This document shows, one piece after another, positions 4,083-18,171 of a stretch of DNA of 64,000 bases. The translations under genes and the position numbers were made by a program. Every line of letters begins with the position of its first letter. Positions within the stretch are counted from its first letter, which is position 1. The DNA is from Candidatus Binatia bacterium (lineage in GTDB: Bacteria; Desulfobacterota; Binatia; UBA9968; CAXXLF01). The DNA lies in NCBI GenBank assembly GCA_963664015.2, contig CAXXLF010000001.1, positions 128,001 to 192,000 on the forward strand. Direction: 5' to 3'. The notes under the pieces were generated by a model. The model worked only from the letters and a program-made list of their open reading frames with translations, was not told the DNA's origin and ran no database searches.

Positions 4083-6233
4083 ATGAACCGACTCCACGGG
4101 CTCTTTTGCCCGAAAAACATCGCCATTATCGGAGCATCAGAAAGGAACCACTACTCGGCCTCTCTGATCCAAAATCTTCTTCGATTCGGCTTTCCCGCTG
4201 AGGCAATCTACCCCATCAACCCAAAATACCAAACCGTCTTTGACAGGCCCTGCTACCCCCACGTCTCAGATATACCGGATAAATTGGACCTCGCCGTTTT
4301 CGCTGTTAGCCGGGACCACCTGCTCCCGCTTCTAAACGAGTCGATTACAAAAGGACTGAAGTCTGCCCTCATCTTATCGACCGGATTCGCCGAGTCCGAC
4401 GAAATTGGCCGTAAGCTACAGAATGAAATTGCAGCGCTTGCGAAGCAGCACTCGGTAAACCTGTGTGGCCCCAACACCCTGGGTTACGTCTCCAATCAAG
4501 GAGGAGTGGCTCTCTGGTCCTCCCCATTGCCAAGCCATATGCGTCCCGGTCCCGTCGGAGCGCTCTTTCACAGCAGTGGACTCCTTAATCTTTTTCTCAA
4601 CGTCGCGGCTGACCGTTGTCTGGGATTCCGATACGCCATTGCCTGTGGGAACGAAGCTGACCTTGGCATGGTCGACTACATGGAAGCGTTGCTCGATGAC
4701 CCGGAAGTGAAGGTGATCGTCACGTTAATCGAGTCGATACGACAACCCGCGGAGTTCTGTGCGCTTCTTGACCGCGCCGGCGAGATAGATAAGCCGGTAG
4801 TGGCCCTGAGGGTCGGAAGGTCGGCCAAGGGGAGCCGCGCTGTCGTGTCACACACGGGTAACCTGGCCACTTCGGGAGCGGCGTGGCAAGCCGTATTCCG
4901 ACAGAAGGGGATCATATCCGTTGATAATATGGATCAGATGGTGGAGACGACCATTGGGCTAGCAAACAACCCTTGTCAGCGGCGGCGGATCAAACGACCT
5001 GCAGGAGTGGGAATCGTAACCATCTCTGGCGGCGATTGCAGTTTTCTATCGGACATCTCCGAGCGGATCAACCTGCAACTGCCCGAGCCATCCGACCGCA
5101 CCTACCGGGCCTTGTCCCCCTATTTCGGGAAAAAATCATTCAACGGCAACCCTCTGGATATAGAGGACCTTCATCAGGTAGACGAAGATAAATTTTACAG
5201 CTGTCTCAAAGCCTTTGCCAGTGAAGAAGCGTTTGATTTAGTCTGCTGCCGCCTCAGTCTCCCCAAGGCTCCAAATGAAGGGCTGAAACGCCTCTATACC
5301 CGATCAGCGGCCATAAGCAAGCAGCAAGGCAAAGGTATGGTTTTCCTCTCTCGGGCCAGCGAGCATTTGGACCCGTCCTGGTTCGAATTCTTTTCACAAT
5401 TGAAAGTACCGTTTCTGATGGAGTACGAAAAGGGAATGCGAGCGGTTCGCGACCTCCTCTGGTTGGCATCGCTTCCCGATACCCCTTCCATTGCTTCGCG
5501 AGGCGACACTCCATCCCGTAAAGTTGATATCAACCCATTGAAGTCCCTTCTTTCAGCCAATCCCAATAAACACCTGACACATGATCAATCCCGACAGCTC
5601 TTAGCGGCATACCATATCCCTTTAGCCAATGAGGCCCTTGCACGCTCGGCCCGCGATGCCGTCGAGGCAGCAAAGCAGATAGGATTTCCCGTGGCCATGA
5701 AGGTGATATCATCGGACCTGCCGCATAAGACCGAGCTAGGAGCTCTATTGATCGACATAGCCGATGAGCGAGCAGTAGAAGAAGGCTTCAACCTTTTGCA
5801 ACAACGGGCTCAGCGCAAGGTCCCTCATGCCGTCGTCGAAGGGATCCTGATTCAAAAAATGGTTCGTGGAATTGCTGAGACCATCGTGGGAACAAATCAC
5901 GACCCCCAGCTAGGTCCGGTGGTCCTTTTTGGTCTGGGCGGCATCTATACGGAGATCTTCAAGGATTTTTCCTTGCGCATGCCCCCATTGACCTCATACG
6001 ATGCCACGGAGATGATCGGTGATGTCAAGGGGAGTGATCTCCTCCGTGGCGCACGAGGTCGGTCCAAAGCCGATATTGAAGGAATCGTGGATGTTATTTT
6101 AAAAGTATCGCAACTAGCCATGGATTTTCGTGGGGAACTCGATTCGATCGAATTAAATCCGGTGATTGCCCTATCGGAAGGGCAGGGCGTATTAGTGGTT
6201 GATACCCTCTTAACACTCAAGAATCAGAAATAA
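4083..6233 (+). CDS. ADP-forming acyl-CoA synthetase (acetate-CoA ligase family, fused alpha-beta)
   Basis: N-terminal CoA-binding domain (IAIIGAS, GPNTLG), phospho-His motif SHTG, C-terminal ATP-grasp (GFPVAMKV, HKTELG, ELNP). Confidence 0.9.
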   Translation: MNRLHGLFCPKNIAIIGASERNHYSASLIQNLLRFGFPAEAIYPINPKYQTVFDRPCYPHVSDIPDKLDLAVFAVSRDHLLPLLNESITKGLKSALILSTGFAESDEIGRKLQNEIAALAKQHSVNLCGPNTLGYVSNQGGVALWSSPLPSHMRPGPVGALFHSSGLLNLFLNVAADRCLGFRYAIACGNEADLGMVDYMEALLDDPEVKVIVTLIESIRQPAEFCALLDRAGEIDKPVVALRVGRSAKGSRAVVSHTGNLATSGAAWQAVFRQKGIISVDNMDQMVETTIGLANNPCQRRRIKRPAGVGIVTISGGDCSFLSDISERINLQLPEPSDRTYRALSPYFGKKSFNGNPLDIEDLHQVDEDKFYSCLKAFASEEAFDLVCCRLSLPKAPNEGLKRLYTRSAAISKQQGKGMVFLSRASEHLDPSWFEFFSQLKVPFLMEYEKGMRAVRDLLWLASLPDTPSIASRGDTPSRKVDINPLKSLLSANPNKHLTHDQSRQLLAAYHIPLANEALARSARDAVEAAKQIGFPVAMKVISSDLPHKTELGALLIDIADERAVEEGFNLLQQRAQRKVPHAVVEGILIQKMVRGIAETIVGTNHDPQLGPVVLFGLGGIYTEIFKDFSLRMPPLTSYDATEMIGDVKGSDLLRGARGRSKADIEGIVDVILKVSQLAMDFRGELDSIELNPVIALSEGQGVLVVDTLLTLKNQK

Positions 6234-12482: not shown

Positions 12483-12659
12483 GATACCTCTCTCACCGGA
12501 CGCGTGGCGTCCTTTTCCCTAGTTCCTACCTAGGTTTATAGAATGGAAGGCAATGCTTCACAAGGGAAACCCAGGGTAAGACACAATTGTTTTCATCCTG
12601 CTTTCGTGGTAACTTTCGCCTTCGGTTTGACCTCCCATACGGGAACGGTTCGAAGTCCA

Positions 12660-13979
12660 ATGAAGCTCTATATCCATACATACGGCTGCCAGATGAATCA
12701 GCAGGATTCGGCTCGCATCGTACAGGTGATGAAAAGTGTGGGCTATACACCCACCGACCAGGTCGAGGAAGCGGATCTTATTCTACTCAACACCTGTAGC
12801 GTACGGGACAAAGCGGAACAAAAGGTATACAGCGCTCTTGGTCGATGGCGCGAGCTTAAGGACGCTCGGGAAGGGGTGATCATAGGGGTTGGCGGCTGTG
12901 TTGCCCAGCAAGAAGGGGAGAGCCTCCTACGTCGGGTCCCTTATCTGGATCTGGTCTTCGGAACTCAAAATATACATAAGCTACCCCAGATGGTTCAAGA
13001 GGTTCAGGAATTGGGAACAAGGCCCGTTGAGCTCGCCTTTTATCGCGACCCCCTCTACCTGGAAGATAGCGAAGGCCGGACCGATGTGCACGGACCCAAA
13101 GCCTACGTTACAATTATGCAGGGGTGCAATAAAGTTTGCAGTTTTTGTGTGGTACCGCACGTTCGCGGTCGGGAAATTAGTAGGCCCGCACACGCCATCG
13201 TCCAGGAGGTCCAAAAATTGGTCGAGGACGGTGTTAAGGAGGTCATGCTTTTGGGCCAAAACGTCAATTCCTACGGGAAGAACTCGGTTCAGAAACAGCC
13301 CACTTTTGCAAAACTCCTCCAGAGGATCGACACCATCGACGGATTAGAGCGGATTCGGTTTACCACATCTCATCCTCAAGACCTGTCCCCCGAGCTCATC
13401 GAGGCATACGCAACACTGAAAAAGCTCTGTGAACATCTACATTTGCCTGTACAATCTGGCTCTGACAAAGTGCTCCAGAGGATGCGCAGGGGCTACACCA
13501 TTTCCGACTATAAAGATCGGATCCAACGCCTGCGAGAACGCTGTCCCCAAGTGGCCCTGACCACTGATATCATTGTCGGGTTCCCCGGAGAGACTGAGGA
13601 GGAGTTCCAGGAAACACTGGATATTCTCAGGGAAATCGAGTACGATGAGATTTTCTCGTTCATGTATTCTCCCAGACCCCAAACGGTGGCTGCAAAGCTC
13701 TTTGCAAACGATGTGCCTGAACGGACCAAAAAGTCCAGGTTGTCGTGTGTTCAGAATCTTCAGCGTGAAATCACACTGAGAAAAAACAGGCAAATGATTG
13801 GCGAGATGGTCGAGATCCTGCTTGAGGGAGAGTCCAAGTGGAGAAAAGATCGGATTACGGGCAGAACGAGGACTAACAAGATAGTGAACGTGATGGCCTC
13901 AGATAGCCTTTTAGGTGCGAAAGTCAATGTCCGTATTACCCTTGCATCGGCCAATTCCCTAATTAGTGAGCTAGCTTAA
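12660..13979 (+). CDS. miaB: tRNA i6A37 methylthiotransferase MiaB
   Basis: TYGCQMN, NTCSVRDKAEQK, GGCVAQ, radical SAM CNKVCSFC, RFTTSHP, C-terminal TRAM domain. Confidence 0.96.
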   Translation: MKLYIHTYGCQMNQQDSARIVQVMKSVGYTPTDQVEEADLILLNTCSVRDKAEQKVYSALGRWRELKDAREGVIIGVGGCVAQQEGESLLRRVPYLDLVFGTQNIHKLPQMVQEVQELGTRPVELAFYRDPLYLEDSEGRTDVHGPKAYVTIMQGCNKVCSFCVVPHVRGREISRPAHAIVQEVQKLVEDGVKEVMLLGQNVNSYGKNSVQKQPTFAKLLQRIDTIDGLERIRFTTSHPQDLSPELIEAYATLKKLCEHLHLPVQSGSDKVLQRMRRGYTISDYKDRIQRLRERCPQVALTTDIIVGFPGETEEEFQETLDILREIEYDEIFSFMYSPRPQTVAAKLFANDVPERTKKSRLSCVQNLQREITLRKNRQMIGEMVEILLEGESKWRKDRITGRTRTNKIVNVMASDSLLGAKVNVRITLASANSLISELA

Positions 13980-13993
13980 GGAGGACATCCGCG

Positions 13994-14509
13994 ATGAAAA
14001 AAAGCGATTCCATTCAGATGAACGTTGGCGGGCTCACGCTGGATCCAGTAACCAAGACCCCCATTGTCATTCTGAAGGATGCTGACAACAAATTGAACCT
14101 TCCCATCTGGATCGGTCTGCTTGAGGCCACGGCAATGGCCACAGAGCTGGAGGGAATTCAGATGGCTCGCCCTATGACCCATGACCTCCTTAAAAATACC
14201 CTTTTGGAGGTCGGTGGATCGGTTGAATATATTGAAATTACCGAGTTGAAGGAAAACACCTATTACGCTTTGATCACACTCAACATTGGGGGGAAAGAGT
14301 TGACTGTCGACTCGCGTCCCAGCGATGCGATTGCACTGGCACTCAGAACGAAGAGCCCCATTTATGTCGCCAAGGAAGTCCTGGAAGCATCGAGTTTCCT
14401 CCAACAGGCGGAAGAGGGTAAAGAGCCCGATTTTTCGAATGTTTCCAAGGAAAAATGGGCCGAGATCCTGAAAAATATGTCCCCTGAAGACTTCAAGTAT
14501 AAAACCTGA
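13994..14509 (+). CDS. Bifunctional nuclease family protein (DUF151)
   Basis: LPIWIG, RPMTHDLL and DSRPSDAIALA motifs. Confidence 0.92.
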   Translation: MKKSDSIQMNVGGLTLDPVTKTPIVILKDADNKLNLPIWIGLLEATAMATELEGIQMARPMTHDLLKNTLLEVGGSVEYIEITELKENTYYALITLNIGGKELTVDSRPSDAIALALRTKSPIYVAKEVLEASSFLQQAEEGKEPDFSNVSKEKWAEILKNMSPEDFKYKT

Positions 14510-14558
14510 GATTGGGCCAACCGCAACCACTCAATTCCGGTATTGACCCGCTACCTGA

Positions 14559-15257
14559 ATGCTCCGCACTCGCAAAAGAATAACCCGTAAAGAGATTCGC
14601 AAACCAGACCAGTTCTTTAACTTTACCGGCTGGTTCCTCCGCTTTGTCAAGACAAACCGGGTAGGAATCATTATCATTGCTAGCCTCGTTGTCGCGGCTG
14701 CTGCCGGTGTGGGGGGTTGGCGTTTCTACCAAATTAAGCAGGATGTTCAGGCCGCCCAGGCATACTCAGCCGCCCTAGAGGCCTACCGAAAAGGGCAGTA
14801 CGAAAACACTCTGGACCTTCTCACACGGGTCAACGCGCCCCGCGGCTCTATATACAAGCAACTTACGCTTCTCTACCAAGCTCACAGCCACATCGCATTA
14901 AAGCGGCCATCCGAGGCCATACCGCTACTTACCGAATTTAACGTCCGCGAGCATAGCCAGGCATATTTAAAAGAGATCGGTTTGATGACCCTGGGATACG
15001 CTCAGGAAGCCACCGGCGAATGTATCTCAGCCATTGCCAATTTTGACCGCGCTGCAACACTATCCGGATCACGAGAGGAAGAAGCCATCCTGTCAAAGGC
15101 CCGTTGCAGTACCCAGTTAGGGGACCTCACCGCAGCAGTCGACGCCTACCGAGAATACCTCGCAAGCTTTCCCGGAAGCTCCAATGAATTGGAGATAACA
15201 ATCAAGATTCAGGCACTAGAAGCAAAGCTTGGAAAAGCACCCACGGAGGGCAAATAA
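14559..15257 (+). CDS. Membrane-anchored TPR protein (YfgM-like)
   Basis: RKEIRKPDQF N-terminus, one TM helix, TPR-like Ala/Tyr helical repeats. Confidence 0.75.
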   Translation: MLRTRKRITRKEIRKPDQFFNFTGWFLRFVKTNRVGIIIIASLVVAAAAGVGGWRFYQIKQDVQAAQAYSAALEAYRKGQYENTLDLLTRVNAPRGSIYKQLTLLYQAHSHIALKRPSEAIPLLTEFNVREHSQAYLKEIGLMTLGYAQEATGECISAIANFDRAATLSGSREEEAILSKARCSTQLGDLTAAVDAYREYLASFPGSSNELEITIKIQALEAKLGKAPTEGK

Positions 15258-15300
15258 GATCGGCAGATGCAACGTCTGATAAGAAATATTATGTAAACCT

Positions 15301-15651
15301 TCACTTCTCGCTTGAATCCGCCATACCTAAGCATCCTTTTTCCCCCCTATCCCCTTCTTTACCCTTAACCAAGAAGAGCCTCGTACGCTGCGGGATTTCC
15401 CGCCTCACGTACTCCCACCCGGCCTTGGAAATTGAAACAAGCTCATAGATCCCACGGGGAATCAGCTTTTTCCCGCTCATATCACTGCAGGTGGTCAAGG
15501 AGGCGTGATCGATCCACTGTTTGTGATGGCTACAATTGCCCCTCAAGGGGCGACGGTTCGGTAGCCGCGGCTGAAAGTAGAGACAGTAGCTACAGGTGTG
15601 TTCTGCAGACCGCCTACTCCCCTGTCGGGGCTTCTTTGACTGTTTATTCAT
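15301..15651 (-). CDS. Small Cys-rich hypothetical protein (Cx2Cx16Cx14C)
   Basis: GAGGGG RBS directly after the TAG of the extended SQR-like gene; CSYCLYF...GNC...TC. Confidence 0.6.
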   Translation of the reverse strand: MNKQSKKPRQGSRRSAEHTCSYCLYFQPRLPNRRPLRGNCSHHKQWIDHASLTTCSDMSGKKLIPRGIYELVSISKAGWEYVRREIPQRTRLFLVKGKEGDRGEKGCLGMADSSEK

Positions 15652-15660
15652 GCCCCTCAT

Positions 15661-16812
15661 CTAGAAGTAACGCCACAGGTACCATTTCTCGAAACCTAGC
15701 TTTGCCCAGTAGATCATCCGCGATGGACCCCAGGACCGGGATTCGGTTGCCCCAAAAGGTGGCCATCCTCGAGGATAAATCGTTCGATTTGCTGCAGCGC
15801 GACCCGCGCCACATGCGAGCAGTCATATGGTATGGAGCCTCAGGGTCGTCGGATGGCCCCGCCCTGTAGCCTTCACCGCCAGGTTGTGGGCGACGACGTC
15901 GGCCCCCTGGTGGGCCACCATCCCGGCCTTCGACGCCGGCATATCGGCACAATCCCCTATCGCATAGACGTTGTCCCATTTTGTAGATAGGGTTTCATAA
16001 TCGACCCTCACGCCGTTCTCCGTATCCGCCAGGCCGCAGTCTCTCAAGACCTGCGCCGGTCTATGGGGCGGGATAAGAAACAGTAGATCGTAATCGATCT
16101 TGTACCCGTATAGGCCCAAGACTGTCTTTTTTTCAGGGTCAATGGAATGAACGACGAATTCGTAGTTCTGTTTGATCTTTCTCGCTTTACTCTGCGCGTC
16201 CATCCAGACCACCGGGTCATGGGCCTCCCCGGCGGGCTCAGGATCACGAGTAAAGTATTCGATCTCGACCCTGTCGCGTCGCCCAGCGTCACGATAATAG
16301 CTATCAAGGAGCCATTGGGTTTCATATGGGGCCGGTGGGCACCGGTAGGGTCCCAACGGAATACCAACAACGATTCGGCCTTCCTTGAAATTCTGCAGCG
16401 CCGGTTGAACTCGTAGCGCCGCATCCATCTCCCAGGCGTGGTGCGCACCTTCACTGAATCCCGGAATCATATCGGGCCTCGTCTGCAGACCCAAGGCAAC
16501 AACCAGGTGGTCGTAAGGAACCTTCTGACTGTCCAGCACCACTTCCTGGCGACCCGGGTCGATACCCAGTATCTCCGCTTGAATAACCTTGACCCGACGG
16601 CGTTCCAGTATCCGCAACTTCCTTTTAAGGTCCTCGGGCCTGCGTTGACCAAGCATCAGAAAGAGAAACGAGGGGGTAAAGATATGCTCTTCCCGCCGAT
16701 CGATAAGGATCACATCATGCTTGCCCCCCAGTGAGCGGCCCAGCTTGGTGGCCGCGGCAAGACCCCCGATCCCCCCACCTAAGATAACGATTTGCGCCCG
16801 TCCGTTCATCAT
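15661..16812 (-). CDS. Sulfide:quinone oxidoreductase / FCSD-like FAD-dependent oxidoreductase, probable selenoprotein (UGA at 15823-15825)
   Basis: GGGIGG FAD motif, YRCPPAPYE, YAIGD and KAG. After the TGA the frame stays open for 53 codons and ends in the family-typical GPSRMIYWAKLGFEKWYLWRYF-TAG (383 aa total). Confidence 0.85.
15793..15822 (-). promoter_or_regulatory. Putative bacterial SECIS element
   Basis: mRNA after the UGA: cugcucgca-UGUGGCGCG-GGU-CGCGCUGCA. This is a 9-bp stem (2 G-U pairs) with an apical GGU loop beginning 19 nt after the UGA. Confidence 0.75.
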
Positions 16813-16907
16813 TCTAGCTTAACTCTCCCCCATTCACCCACCCGTCCCTAAGGCCATACGGATCTAACCATCGTACAGAACACTACGAGTGTTAACCCCA
16901 GGCGGCT

Positions 16908-17123
16908 TTATTTCCGCTCCTGCCTCAACTGCCGCCGGCGGGAAATCAATCCCAGGCCCCGGATGCTTCTAAGCCTTTGCTCCCTCCAAGCCCCTTGCTC
17001 CGCCTTTCCCTCATCGGTCAGCTCACGACCGAACCAGGAGGTACTCCGAAGCAGGGATACGAGACACCAATCGGTCAAAGATTTGACCGGTTCCAACATC
17101 CACTCTACAATTCGCTTCAGCAT
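16908..17123 (-). CDS. Small hypothetical protein (71 aa, basic)
   Basis: AGGAG RBS before ATG 17123; same strand as flanking genes; no recognisable motif. Confidence 0.45.
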   Translation of the reverse strand: MLKRIVEWMLEPVKSLTDWCLVSLLRSTSWFGRELTDEGKAEQGAWREQRLRSIRGLGLISRRRQLRQERK

Positions 17124-17202
17124 GATTCTCCTACCTTCGAAGCCTTCGTGTATTCCGACAACGGTTCTGCAAAACACCGGCCATGTTCTGGCGGGAGCAA
17201 GC

Positions 17203-18171
17203 CTAACGTAGAAAGGTGTCTTCCTGCTCCAAGCCCGCTACCGCTTCCTTTATGGCCAGAGTGGTAGGCACCTTGTCTCCCAAGAGCCCAATCTGCCGGA
17301 AGAACTGGCCAATTTGAGCATGGTCCCGTGGCGTCACCTGGGTGTAAGGTCGTACCGGATCACCGATATCAACGCCAAAATGCCGCATTGCCGATTTCAT
17401 GATTGGCGGCAGCCCGTACGCCCCCCATTTACCCGGGAACAGGGAAAAACACCTCTGCCAGTATCTAGCGTGATCCAGGTCGCCGGCCCTAAAGGCCTTG
17501 ACCACCTGGGCGCCGATACGGGTCCCCGGAGGCGGCATCGTGGCACCCGATCCTCCCATCATAAGTGTCGAGAGGAGAGGCTGCATGGTTGTAAAATAAT
17601 GTCCCTTCCCGGCCATTTCGATCTGCTCCACAAGCCGTGTAATCTTGGTAATGTCACGGGAGCTTTCTTTAAAATACTGAACATTGGTCAGCTCGCTGAG
17701 TTTAACAAAGGTCTCGATGGGAGGGTCCGCTCCCGGCCCTGGGTTGTGATACGCAACCACGGGCAACGGGCTGGCGGAGGCGACTTGAGTGAAGTACTCT
17801 ACGATTTCCGCAATGGTGGGCTGCTGCCCCCAAGGTCTCAGCTGCATCAACACCTGGGCCATATCCGCCCCGATGGTGGCGGCATATTCGGCTAATTCGA
17901 TCACTTCATGAGGGGAAGGATTCGAGCACCCGGCTAGTACGGGGACCCGTTTCCCGACCATTTCAGTTCCGATACGAAGCAACTCCTTACGTTGCTCGAG
18001 GGTCAACATGGTATATTCGGCAGCCTCGACAGCAGCAATGGAGATGGCGTCACAGTCCGCTACCAGAAATTCAATTTCATGTTCCAACGCCTTGTAGTTG
18101 ACGCGATCGTCTTCTCCAAAGGGCGTTAGACAGGCTCCAATAATGCCGTTGACTGGCTTCTCCAGTGGCAT
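17203..18171 (-). CDS. DHDPS/NAL-family class I aldolase or dehydratase
   Basis: ACLTPF...VNY, RVPVLAG, Schiff-base Lys in YFKESS; TIM-barrel length. Confidence 0.85.
   Translation of the reverse strand: MPLEKPVNGIIGACLTPFGEDDRVNYKALEHEIEFLVADCDAISIAAVEAAEYTMLTLEQRKELLRIGTEMVGKRVPVLAGCSNPSPHEVIELAEYAATIGADMAQVLMQLRPWGQQPTIAEIVEYFTQVASASPLPVVAYHNPGPGADPPIETFVKLSELTNVQYFKESSRDITKITRLVEQIEMAGKGHYFTTMQPLLSTLMMGGSGATMPPPGTRIGAQVVKAFRAGDLDHARYWQRCFSLFPGKWGAYGLPPIMKSAMRHFGVDIGDPVRPYTQVTPRDHAQIGQFFRQIGLLGDKVPTTLAIKEAVAGLEQEDTFLR

Follow-up and report, generated by a model that had tools for sequence, protein, structure and literature searches.

Does the UGA near the end of a flavoprotein gene stop translation, or does it encode selenocysteine (Sec)? 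The question is raised by a 64,000-nucleotide stretch of contig CAXXLF010000001.1 from a Candidatus Binatia bacterium (the window, whose numbering we use throughout), in which a minus-strand gene for an oxidoreductase of the sulfide:quinone oxidoreductase (SQR) and flavocytochrome c sulfide dehydrogenase (FCSD) type starts with ATG at 16812. Under translation table 11 its open reading frame (ORF) has 329 residues, ending ...LRLHTI, and is closed by a TGA at 15823..15825. An earlier reading of this DNA from its letters alone (the sequence-only reading) had held that the frame stays open past the TGA as far as a TAG, and translation with the TGA read through bears this out: 53 open codons follow and the frame closes at TAG 15663-15661. 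The read-through tail is ULLACGAGRAAANRTIYPRGWPPFGATESRSWGPSRMIYWAKLGFEKWYLWRYF, where U, residue 330 in the motif H-T-I-U, is assigned as Sec from TGA in relatives and Cys in homologues.

We propose that the gene very probably encodes a selenoprotein, the UGA at codon 330 being decoded as Sec in a SelB-dependent, hairpin-directed manner. The complete gene (15661..16812, minus strand), recognized by its frame and by matches to Pfam, NCBIfam and SQOR profiles, would thus specify an SQR/FCSD-type flavoprotein of 383 residues with U330 and a TAG stop.

Conservation of the UGA and of the frame beyond it

We scanned the prokaryotes at one genome per species and confirmed 106 relatives, of which the best 80 form the basis of all counts over 80 loci given here. 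The homologous codon is TGA in every one of the 80, and in 76 the gene is complete with this single TGA. Among the exceptions, L125 is ended by a contig edge and L124 runs off. Two further loci, L053 and L130, keep both the TGA and the extension, but their frames are interrupted by one more stop, 239 and 268 codons ahead of the TGA; a frameshift, a mistake in assembly or a damaged gene copy could account for it.

Closer to the window's own genome, 52 of the 60 nearest genomes hold a match, and each of the 52 shows one TGA in it. With this frequency the gene appears to be near-universal and vertically inherited in its order, as part of the order's core. The sequence-only reading had named TGY codons and a missing hairpin in close relatives as the sign of a simple nonsense mutation; the codon is TGA, not TGY, in 80/80 loci and in 52/52 relatives, which excludes a recent nonsense mutation, and the hairpin is kept. 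A phylum-wide sample, in which 29 of 401 genomes matched at E <= 1e-40 (the window's own genome, G000, included) and none was closer than 40% identity, had first suggested horizontal acquisition, a possibility ruled out by the 52 of 60 nearest genomes together with the synteny counts.

The 53 codons that are lost under table-11 annotation (15664..15822, minus strand) were compared across 80 sequences, namely 79 loci and the window. They contain no internal stop in any sequence, and the position of the end codon is identical in 80/80. The mean ratio of non-synonymous to synonymous polymorphism (pN/pS) is 0.165 in the extension against 0.159 for the 53 codons ahead of the TGA, and ungapped nucleotide identity is 0.762 within the extension and 0.254 just past the stop. 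At the protein level the extension is selected as strongly as the codons upstream of it, and hence it is translated. The gene itself terminates in TAG (32 sequences), TGA (28) or TAA (20), and as TGA is the ordinary terminator of 28 of these genes, a general reassignment of TGA is argued against.

One alternative takes the TGA as a true stop, with a 329-residue product and a downstream frame that is either a separate element or a decaying remnant of a pseudogene. The public records examined agree with it, 118 of the 120 top database entries having a truncated length, but we give it almost no credence: the extension has the pN/pS of the upstream codons, never a stop and always the same end codon, its homologous counterpart is the C-terminal region of solved SQRs, and a 329-residue product would lose the second redox residue. 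Nor does the extension have a conserved start codon of its own, because it begins Leu-Leu.

Those database entries come from a protein search that returned 957 proteins at E <= 1e-10. Among the best 120, 118 are 327-359 amino acids (aa) long and cover 80-86% of the read-through query, a signature of systematic truncation at the UGA codon, just as the sequence-only reading had expected of automated pipelines. The two full-length exceptions among the 120 are P0009, which is 68% identical and has Cys at the U position, and P0040, which has Asn there. P0040, a 383-aa protein of the window's clade, also has ALYE in place of APYE after its first Cys and may be a redox-inactive or repurposed form.

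Sequencing reads, to which the sequence-only reading had looked for a possible TGC or TGT, carry the TGA. Contigs of two run sets from different studies match 15300-16900 with 0 differences, although either could be the source of the window's DNA; they exclude an assembly-specific error at the TGA and have no bearing on expression. In seawater run X7, from a related strain, a contig breaks at 15815-15820, beside the TGA and the hairpin; strain variation or the high G+C content of the hairpin may have interrupted the assembly there. Because this run covers the TGA only within 11 nucleotides (nt) of a contig end, we did not count it. The contig from RNA library X20 spans only 15973-16177, with 4 differences, and shows neither transcription nor read-through.

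Residue 330 as the probable second redox position

What would Sec do at residue 330? The features that mark SQR/FCSD enzymes are found in the protein: a GxGxxG motif with the Pyr_redox_2 fold, the Cys of C-x-x-A-P-x-E and, as U330, the counterpart of the second redox Cys. The dinucleotide-binding motif for flavin adenine dinucleotide (FAD), GGGIGG, is read from the sequence at 16762..16779, and Pfam returns Pyr_redox_2 (1.1e-22) and FCSD_central (31.3 bits, cut-off 27). The first redox cysteine, Cys158 of CPPAPYE (16339..16341), is invariant in alignment A3, as are G12, G13, G14, G16 and G17 of the FAD motif and H327 of HxxU.

P0009 and 21 homologues that are more distant have Cys in the U330 column, with L022-L027 among the Cys-type loci; U stands in 27 rows of the 49-row alignment and Asn in P0040. 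The best solved relatives are mitochondrial SQOR chains, with E-values of 1.7e-34 for the single sequence and 6.8e-46 for a 44-row family profile; chains 8dhk, 6oi5 and 6mo6 are, we assume, human SQOR with the Cys201/Cys379 trisulfide. With single sequence and profile alike, C158 falls on the Cys of VKCAGAPQE in solved SQOR and U330 on that of YTSCPLVTGY; these two are presumably the trisulfide cysteines Cys201 and Cys379 of the human enzyme. The sequence-only reading had looked for U to align with Cys, and it does so in P0009, in L022-L027 and others, and at YTSC of SQOR. SQOR, a eukaryotic type II enzyme, has Cys rather than Sec, and its alignment with the window's protein stops near residue 346, the C-terminal membrane region being different.

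Prokaryotic SQRs and FCSDs are the next solved relatives. The prokaryotic SQRs (3h8i/3h8l, deposited as 'NADH oxidase', 3hyv, 3t2y and related chains) align over the whole length including the extension, among them chains 3h8i, which we take to be the Acidianus SQR, and 3hyv, with residues 9-382 pairing with 3-395 and 8-383 with 3-392; the FEKWWLW helix aligns with FTKYYMW. All of these SQRs carry Cys. The FCSD flavoprotein subunit (1fcd, 3vrd, 5n1t) is related through the FCSD_central match and profile E-values of 1e-30 to 1e-32, but the window's protein has a predicted C-terminal amphipathic helix, as in membrane SQRs, and no gene for a cytochrome c subunit is adjacent, the neighbours having no such family and the small downstream ORF having CxxCL instead of CxxCH.

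The C-terminal helix, IYWAKLGFEKWYLWRY (15667..15720, minus strand), is presumed to face the membrane and quinone; the helix is placed by an AF2 model (residues 365-382) and by the 3h8i alignment, and its membrane role is conjectural. In the model, built from 44 closely related rows, the predicted local distance difference test score (pLDDT) is mostly 80-96 across residues 1-280 and <50 at 365-382, a segment that can be aligned to the C-terminal ends of 3h8i and 3hyv. Both the CPxAPYE motif and the K..FEK.WL-type C-terminal helix motif claimed in the sequence-only reading are present, as CPPAPYE and as K..FEKW.LW at the very C-terminus of the protein. Its proposal of a UxxxC cysteine as a further redox feature did not hold: C334 is Cys in only 23/81 sequences and otherwise Phe, Tyr, Val or Met. 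We rejected the motif on this count, which places C334 outside any conserved redox motif.

Selenocysteine machinery and a SECIS-like hairpin

Is the cell equipped to read the UGA as Sec? The window's own genome, 97.3% complete in 2 contigs, contains the selA, selB, selD and tRNA-Sec genes on which the sequence-only reading had staked its case. On contig 2, selA (606.4 bits), selB (408.7 bits) and selD (372.7 bits) are adjacent and all above curated cut-offs, and about 10 kb downstream lies a tRNA-Sec (74.2 bits) that ARAGORN calls tRNA-SeC with anticodon tca. Together these genes (L002, L009, L010, L013) fall within about 16 kb, at 1306534-1322625. Only one tRNA with the anticodon UCA was found, the other Rfam tRNA-Sec matches that were checked (5/17) being ordinary Ser, Leu and Cys tRNAs. 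In the order sample selA is above its cut-off in 58/61 genomes, and two of the three selA-negative genomes also lack the SQR gene. The selD gene has an in-frame TGA of its own, at the GUAAK site (...KAAGUAAK...), with a GUU-loop hairpin about 33 nt past the UGA.

A signal for Sec insertion would be expected close behind the UGA. The sequence-only reading had described a 9-bp stem nine nt after the UGA with a GGU loop at +19, and sequence and ViennaRNA agree with it: the stem, UGUGGCGCG/CGCGCUGCA, begins nine nt past the UGA, and the first base of the GGU loop is 19 nt after it. In this genome the fold adds two pairs across a bulged A (15791..15816, minus strand; -15.8 kcal/mol over 40 nt), and the outer pairs of this extended hairpin vary among relatives. 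Across a gap-free alignment of 81 sequences, 66 nt from the TGA, RNAalifold finds a conserved core resembling a selenocysteine insertion sequence (SECIS): 17 nt starting 11 nt after the UGA (15795..15811), with a 6-bp G+C stem (columns 15-20 with 26-31) and a 5-nt loop N-G-G-N-C, at -11.38 kcal/mol. The second and third loop bases (columns 22 and 23) are invariant G. The minimal E. coli fdhF element has the same size and distance, 17 nt and 11 nt past the UGA. When the pair 21-25 is added to the stem, the resulting 7-pair structure has 91.3% of cells paired, versus 21.8-72.5% with the 3' partners slid.

One side of each pair falls on a first or second codon position, where changes are non-synonymous, so covariation is expected to be absent and is uninformative; a wobble-site test was used in its place. 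Each of the three four-fold wobble sites inside the stem is C or U in 81/81 sequences (codons GGC 79/GGT 2; CGC 79/CGT 1/AGC 1; GCC 77/GCT 4), and every change seen in the stem preserves G-C or G-U pairing. Elsewhere in these 66 nt all four bases occur at the third position of Ala, Gly, Arg, Thr and Pro codons, and the gene-wide share of pyrimidine endings is 0.69 for GGN, 0.53 for GCN and 0.62 for CGN. Like the UGA and the extension, the hairpin shows conservation and selection.

The geometry agrees with published constraints on bacterial SECIS (bSECIS) elements. That model asks for a G at loop position one or two, most often with G or U as the next base, for 16-37 nt from UGA to loop and for an energy <= -7.5 kcal/mol (PMC13188914, section 5); the legend of its Fig. 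2 gives 3-9 nt for the apical loop and 4-16 bp for the upper stem. The window has a 3-nt GGU loop on a 9-bp stem at a spacing of 18 nt, and the consensus a 5-nt loop with the invariant GG on a 6-bp stem at 17 nt; the energies of -15.8 and -11.38 kcal/mol lie within the limit, a stability equalled by 24/200 shuffles. Like bacterial SECIS elements under the Zhang and Gladyshev consensus, the hairpin sits just 3' of the UGA within the coding region and has a small G-G loop, similar spacing and similar stability; it differs in showing no sequence similarity to any Rfam family, and SelB binding here is a prediction. Rfam's only hit in the region, to an S4 leader on the opposite strand, scored 17.6 bits where the gathering score is 34.7, and we regard it as chance.

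Relation to catalogued selenoproteins

The sequence-only reading did not recall SQR among classic bacterial selenoprotein families, and it overestimated the novelty of the gene. In 2025 deep-Sep predicted an NAD(P)/FAD oxidoreductase that bears Sec (PMC12013277), and a 2026 review lists a Sec form of type III SQR as NF049943, with the motif HxxU (PMC13188914). In the literature that was searched, these two papers are the only ones found to bear on Sec-SQR. The subtype is therefore already catalogued, though the window's clade lies below the cut-off of the NF049943 model. What we describe appears to be a distinct, large and consistently mis-annotated clade of a selenoprotein kind catalogued since 2025, some members of which may be listed in Table S2 and Figs S1-S3 of PMC12013277.

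True NF049943 members from the window's phylum, L028 (652.5 bits) and L045 (665.5 bits), have U in the same column as H327-T-I-U330. The two kinds of protein share a superfamily and Sec at this column in H-x-x-U, and both are known from computational prediction. Two NF049943 members that were folded have, like the window, a GG-loop hairpin, starting about 12-17 nt after the UGA. The window's protein differs in being only about 33-37% identical and in having a shorter C-terminus that ends WLWRYF.

In a quick maximum-likelihood tree of 49 rows, unrooted in substance and with Cys rows from the window's phylum only, the window's clade (18 Sec, 1 Cys, 1 Asn) sits on a long branch with full support (SH-aLRT 100), sister to a Cys-only clade, with an NF049943-like clade (13 Cys, 9 Sec) on the far side of the midpoint root. 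Because the window's clade is separate and its sister has Cys only, at least three Sec/Cys changes are needed on the starred branches, and the tree suggests a separate Cys-to-Sec switch in the window's clade.

Several loci of the window's own phylum (L030, L034-L038 and L044) have NF049943-type genes with full-length proteins bearing U in HxxU. Genes of this type had been scored as having no stops inside because the matches ended before the TGA; on reading on, U was found in eight more. Sec forms of the NF049943 family thus appear to be commoner in this phylum than the search table suggests.

Weighing the selenoprotein reading

The proposal that UGA encodes Sec, first made in the sequence-only reading, draws support from TGA conservation, the Cys column, the hairpin and the machinery. 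A number of results weigh against it or against the enzyme activity that we attach to it. Folded alone, the hairpin gives z = -1.16, with 24/200 shuffles as stable, and z -0.85 in a second test; it is no better than chance by itself in such G+C-rich sequence, and its significance therefore comes only from relatives. RNAalifold found 0 pairs with compensatory double changes in the 81 sequences, a covariation score equal to that of the hairpin was reached by 133/500 shuffles, and Rfam at permissive thresholds found no SECIS family in 15400-16100. In one genome of the order, G446 (96% complete), the TGA gene is present and selA was not found. The protein scores 242.6 bits against NF049943 (SQR_III_seleno), or 236.5 in a six-frame search, where the cut-off is 525. 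Our literature search found no experimental demonstration of selenium in this or any SQR-type protein, and the 2025 paper itself asks for verification of predicted Sec (PMC12013277). On the side of the enzyme, SQR activity is assigned from distant homology only. For chain 3h8i, the profile alignment puts the second Cys one column away from U330, and the single-sequence alignment (phmmer, C-terminal 128 residues) puts it four columns away, on C334. The AF2 model has pLDDT <50 over residues 326-365 and gives no information on Sec330-Cys158 proximity.

Some of these points would also fit a UGA that is read through as Trp or Cys, by a near-cognate or suppressor tRNA, with the hairpin acting as a read-through stimulator only. 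The case for selenium in the protein is computational, and compensatory covariation is missing from the hairpin. We nevertheless consider this explanation very improbable: the Sec machinery is complete in the genome and conserved in the order, the sole tRNA with a UCA anticodon is called tRNA-SeC by ARAGORN, the column is a catalytic Cys in homologues, the hairpin geometry fits the bSECIS model, and TGA terminates 28/80 of the same genes.

Sec decoding of codon 330 therefore stays our preferred reading, and we suggest the following model. When a ribosome arrives at the UGA, the 17-nt stem-loop 11 nt downstream would be bound by SelB with its Sec-tRNA(Sec) (anticodon UCA), and Sec would be inserted in place of termination. 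The 53 further codons would complete the active-site strand and add the C-terminal amphipathic helix, giving a 383-residue, membrane-associated flavoprotein of the SQR/FCSD superfamily. Sec330 would replace the second redox-active cysteine and pair with Cys158 of CPPAPYE over the flavin, so that sulfide is oxidized on a Cys-S...Se-Sec bridge and electrons pass via FAD to the membrane quinone. Homology, and gene context in part of the clade, make it probable that Sec330 pairs with Cys158 over FAD in an enzyme that oxidizes sulfide and reduces quinone. Selenium incorporation, the sulfide and quinone substrates and the chemistry of the S-Se bridge are all matters that we infer.

Beyond the gene itself, we see consequences for annotation. 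The truncated entries miss the second catalytic residue and the presumed membrane helix, and the sole curated Sec-SQR model fails to reach this clade; a dedicated model or an exception rule would correct 118 entries and probably many more homologues among the 957 proteins. The gene is in 52/60 genomes, always with TGA, and the order would therefore depend on selenium for its SQR step, a dependence that matters when the sulfur metabolism of these bacteria is inferred from metagenomes. A naturally occurring enzyme with a mixed S-Se bridge in its active site would also let one test directly why Cys gives way to Sec in sulfur-transfer chemistry, and its biochemistry would connect with reports of SQOR handling selenide.

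Gene neighbourhood

Can the neighbouring genes tell us which reaction the enzyme catalyses? Neighbours were counted over the 80 loci by targeted tblastn. Directly downstream on the minus strand is a small Cys-rich ORF of 119 aa (15301..15660), the ATG of which abuts the SQR stop (TAGATG) and which has a homologue downstream on the same strand in 33/80 loci. It has four conserved Cys (CxxC...C...C) and no Pfam or NCBIfam family, and the Atlas returned only hypothetical-protein clusters, with scores <0.9, commonest in Binatota. We regard it as a probable operon partner of the SQR gene. Upstream, also on the minus strand, are an 89-aa ORF (17177..16908), upstream in 75/80 loci and matching no known family, and a DHDPS-family gene (18171..17203; Pfam DHDPS 8.8e-32), which has an upstream homologue in 76/80.

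In other loci the context points to sulfur. A fusion of a metallo-beta-lactamase (MBL) fold and a rhodanese follows the SQR gene in 19/80 loci (for example at 4168-5202 (+) in L063), 17 of them on the same strand and two, L051 and L052, on the opposite one. Its top NCBIfam match is the bifunctional sulfur transferase/dioxygenase Blh, below cut-off, and by sequence it looks like a persulfide dioxygenase/sulfurtransferase. A Blh-like sulfur transferase/dioxygenase is the usual downstream partner of SQR. This partner supports a role in sulfide oxidation, but the window's own genome has no orthologue of the fusion, its best match being 35% identical and its MBL and rhodanese genes separate and distant.

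A real selenoprotein of SQR fold could therefore still carry out another reaction, with selenide, polysulfide or persulfide as substrate or with a different electron acceptor, and we rate this as possible though unlikely. It gains from the distance to characterized SQRs (E 1e-34 to 1e-46, under every curated NCBIfam cut-off), from conserved neighbours (the DHDPS-family gene and the 89-aa and Cys-rich ORFs) that are not classical sulfide-oxidation genes, and from the fusion being missing in the window's genome. A preprint (10.1101/2023.04.13.535674) reportedly has SQOR oxidizing selenide, and we count this on the same side. Sulfide oxidation with quinone reduction is favoured by the presence of both redox positions, the FAD motif and a predicted SQR-type C-terminal helix, and by the same-strand fusion in 17/80 loci.

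It is tempting to speculate further, on what we hold to be a doubtful proposition, that an independent Cys-to-Sec conversion was fixed in an order of largely marine and soil Binatia-type bacteria, where the S-Se bridge would give the enzyme a new property and where it might act in an undescribed pathway with the 89-aa and four-Cys ORFs. Such properties, beyond those of Cys enzymes, might be that it withstands over-oxidation, or that it scavenges the traces of sulfide or selenide present in oxic water.

Convergent on the SQR operon, on the plus strand at 12543-15257, are genes for MiaB, a bifunctional-nuclease-domain protein and a TPR_21 protein, and the same layout recurs in 31, 48 and 52 of the 80 loci. 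The record titles of the 80 loci name several phyla, and the shared synteny suggests that many of these metagenome-assembled genome labels describe one lineage.

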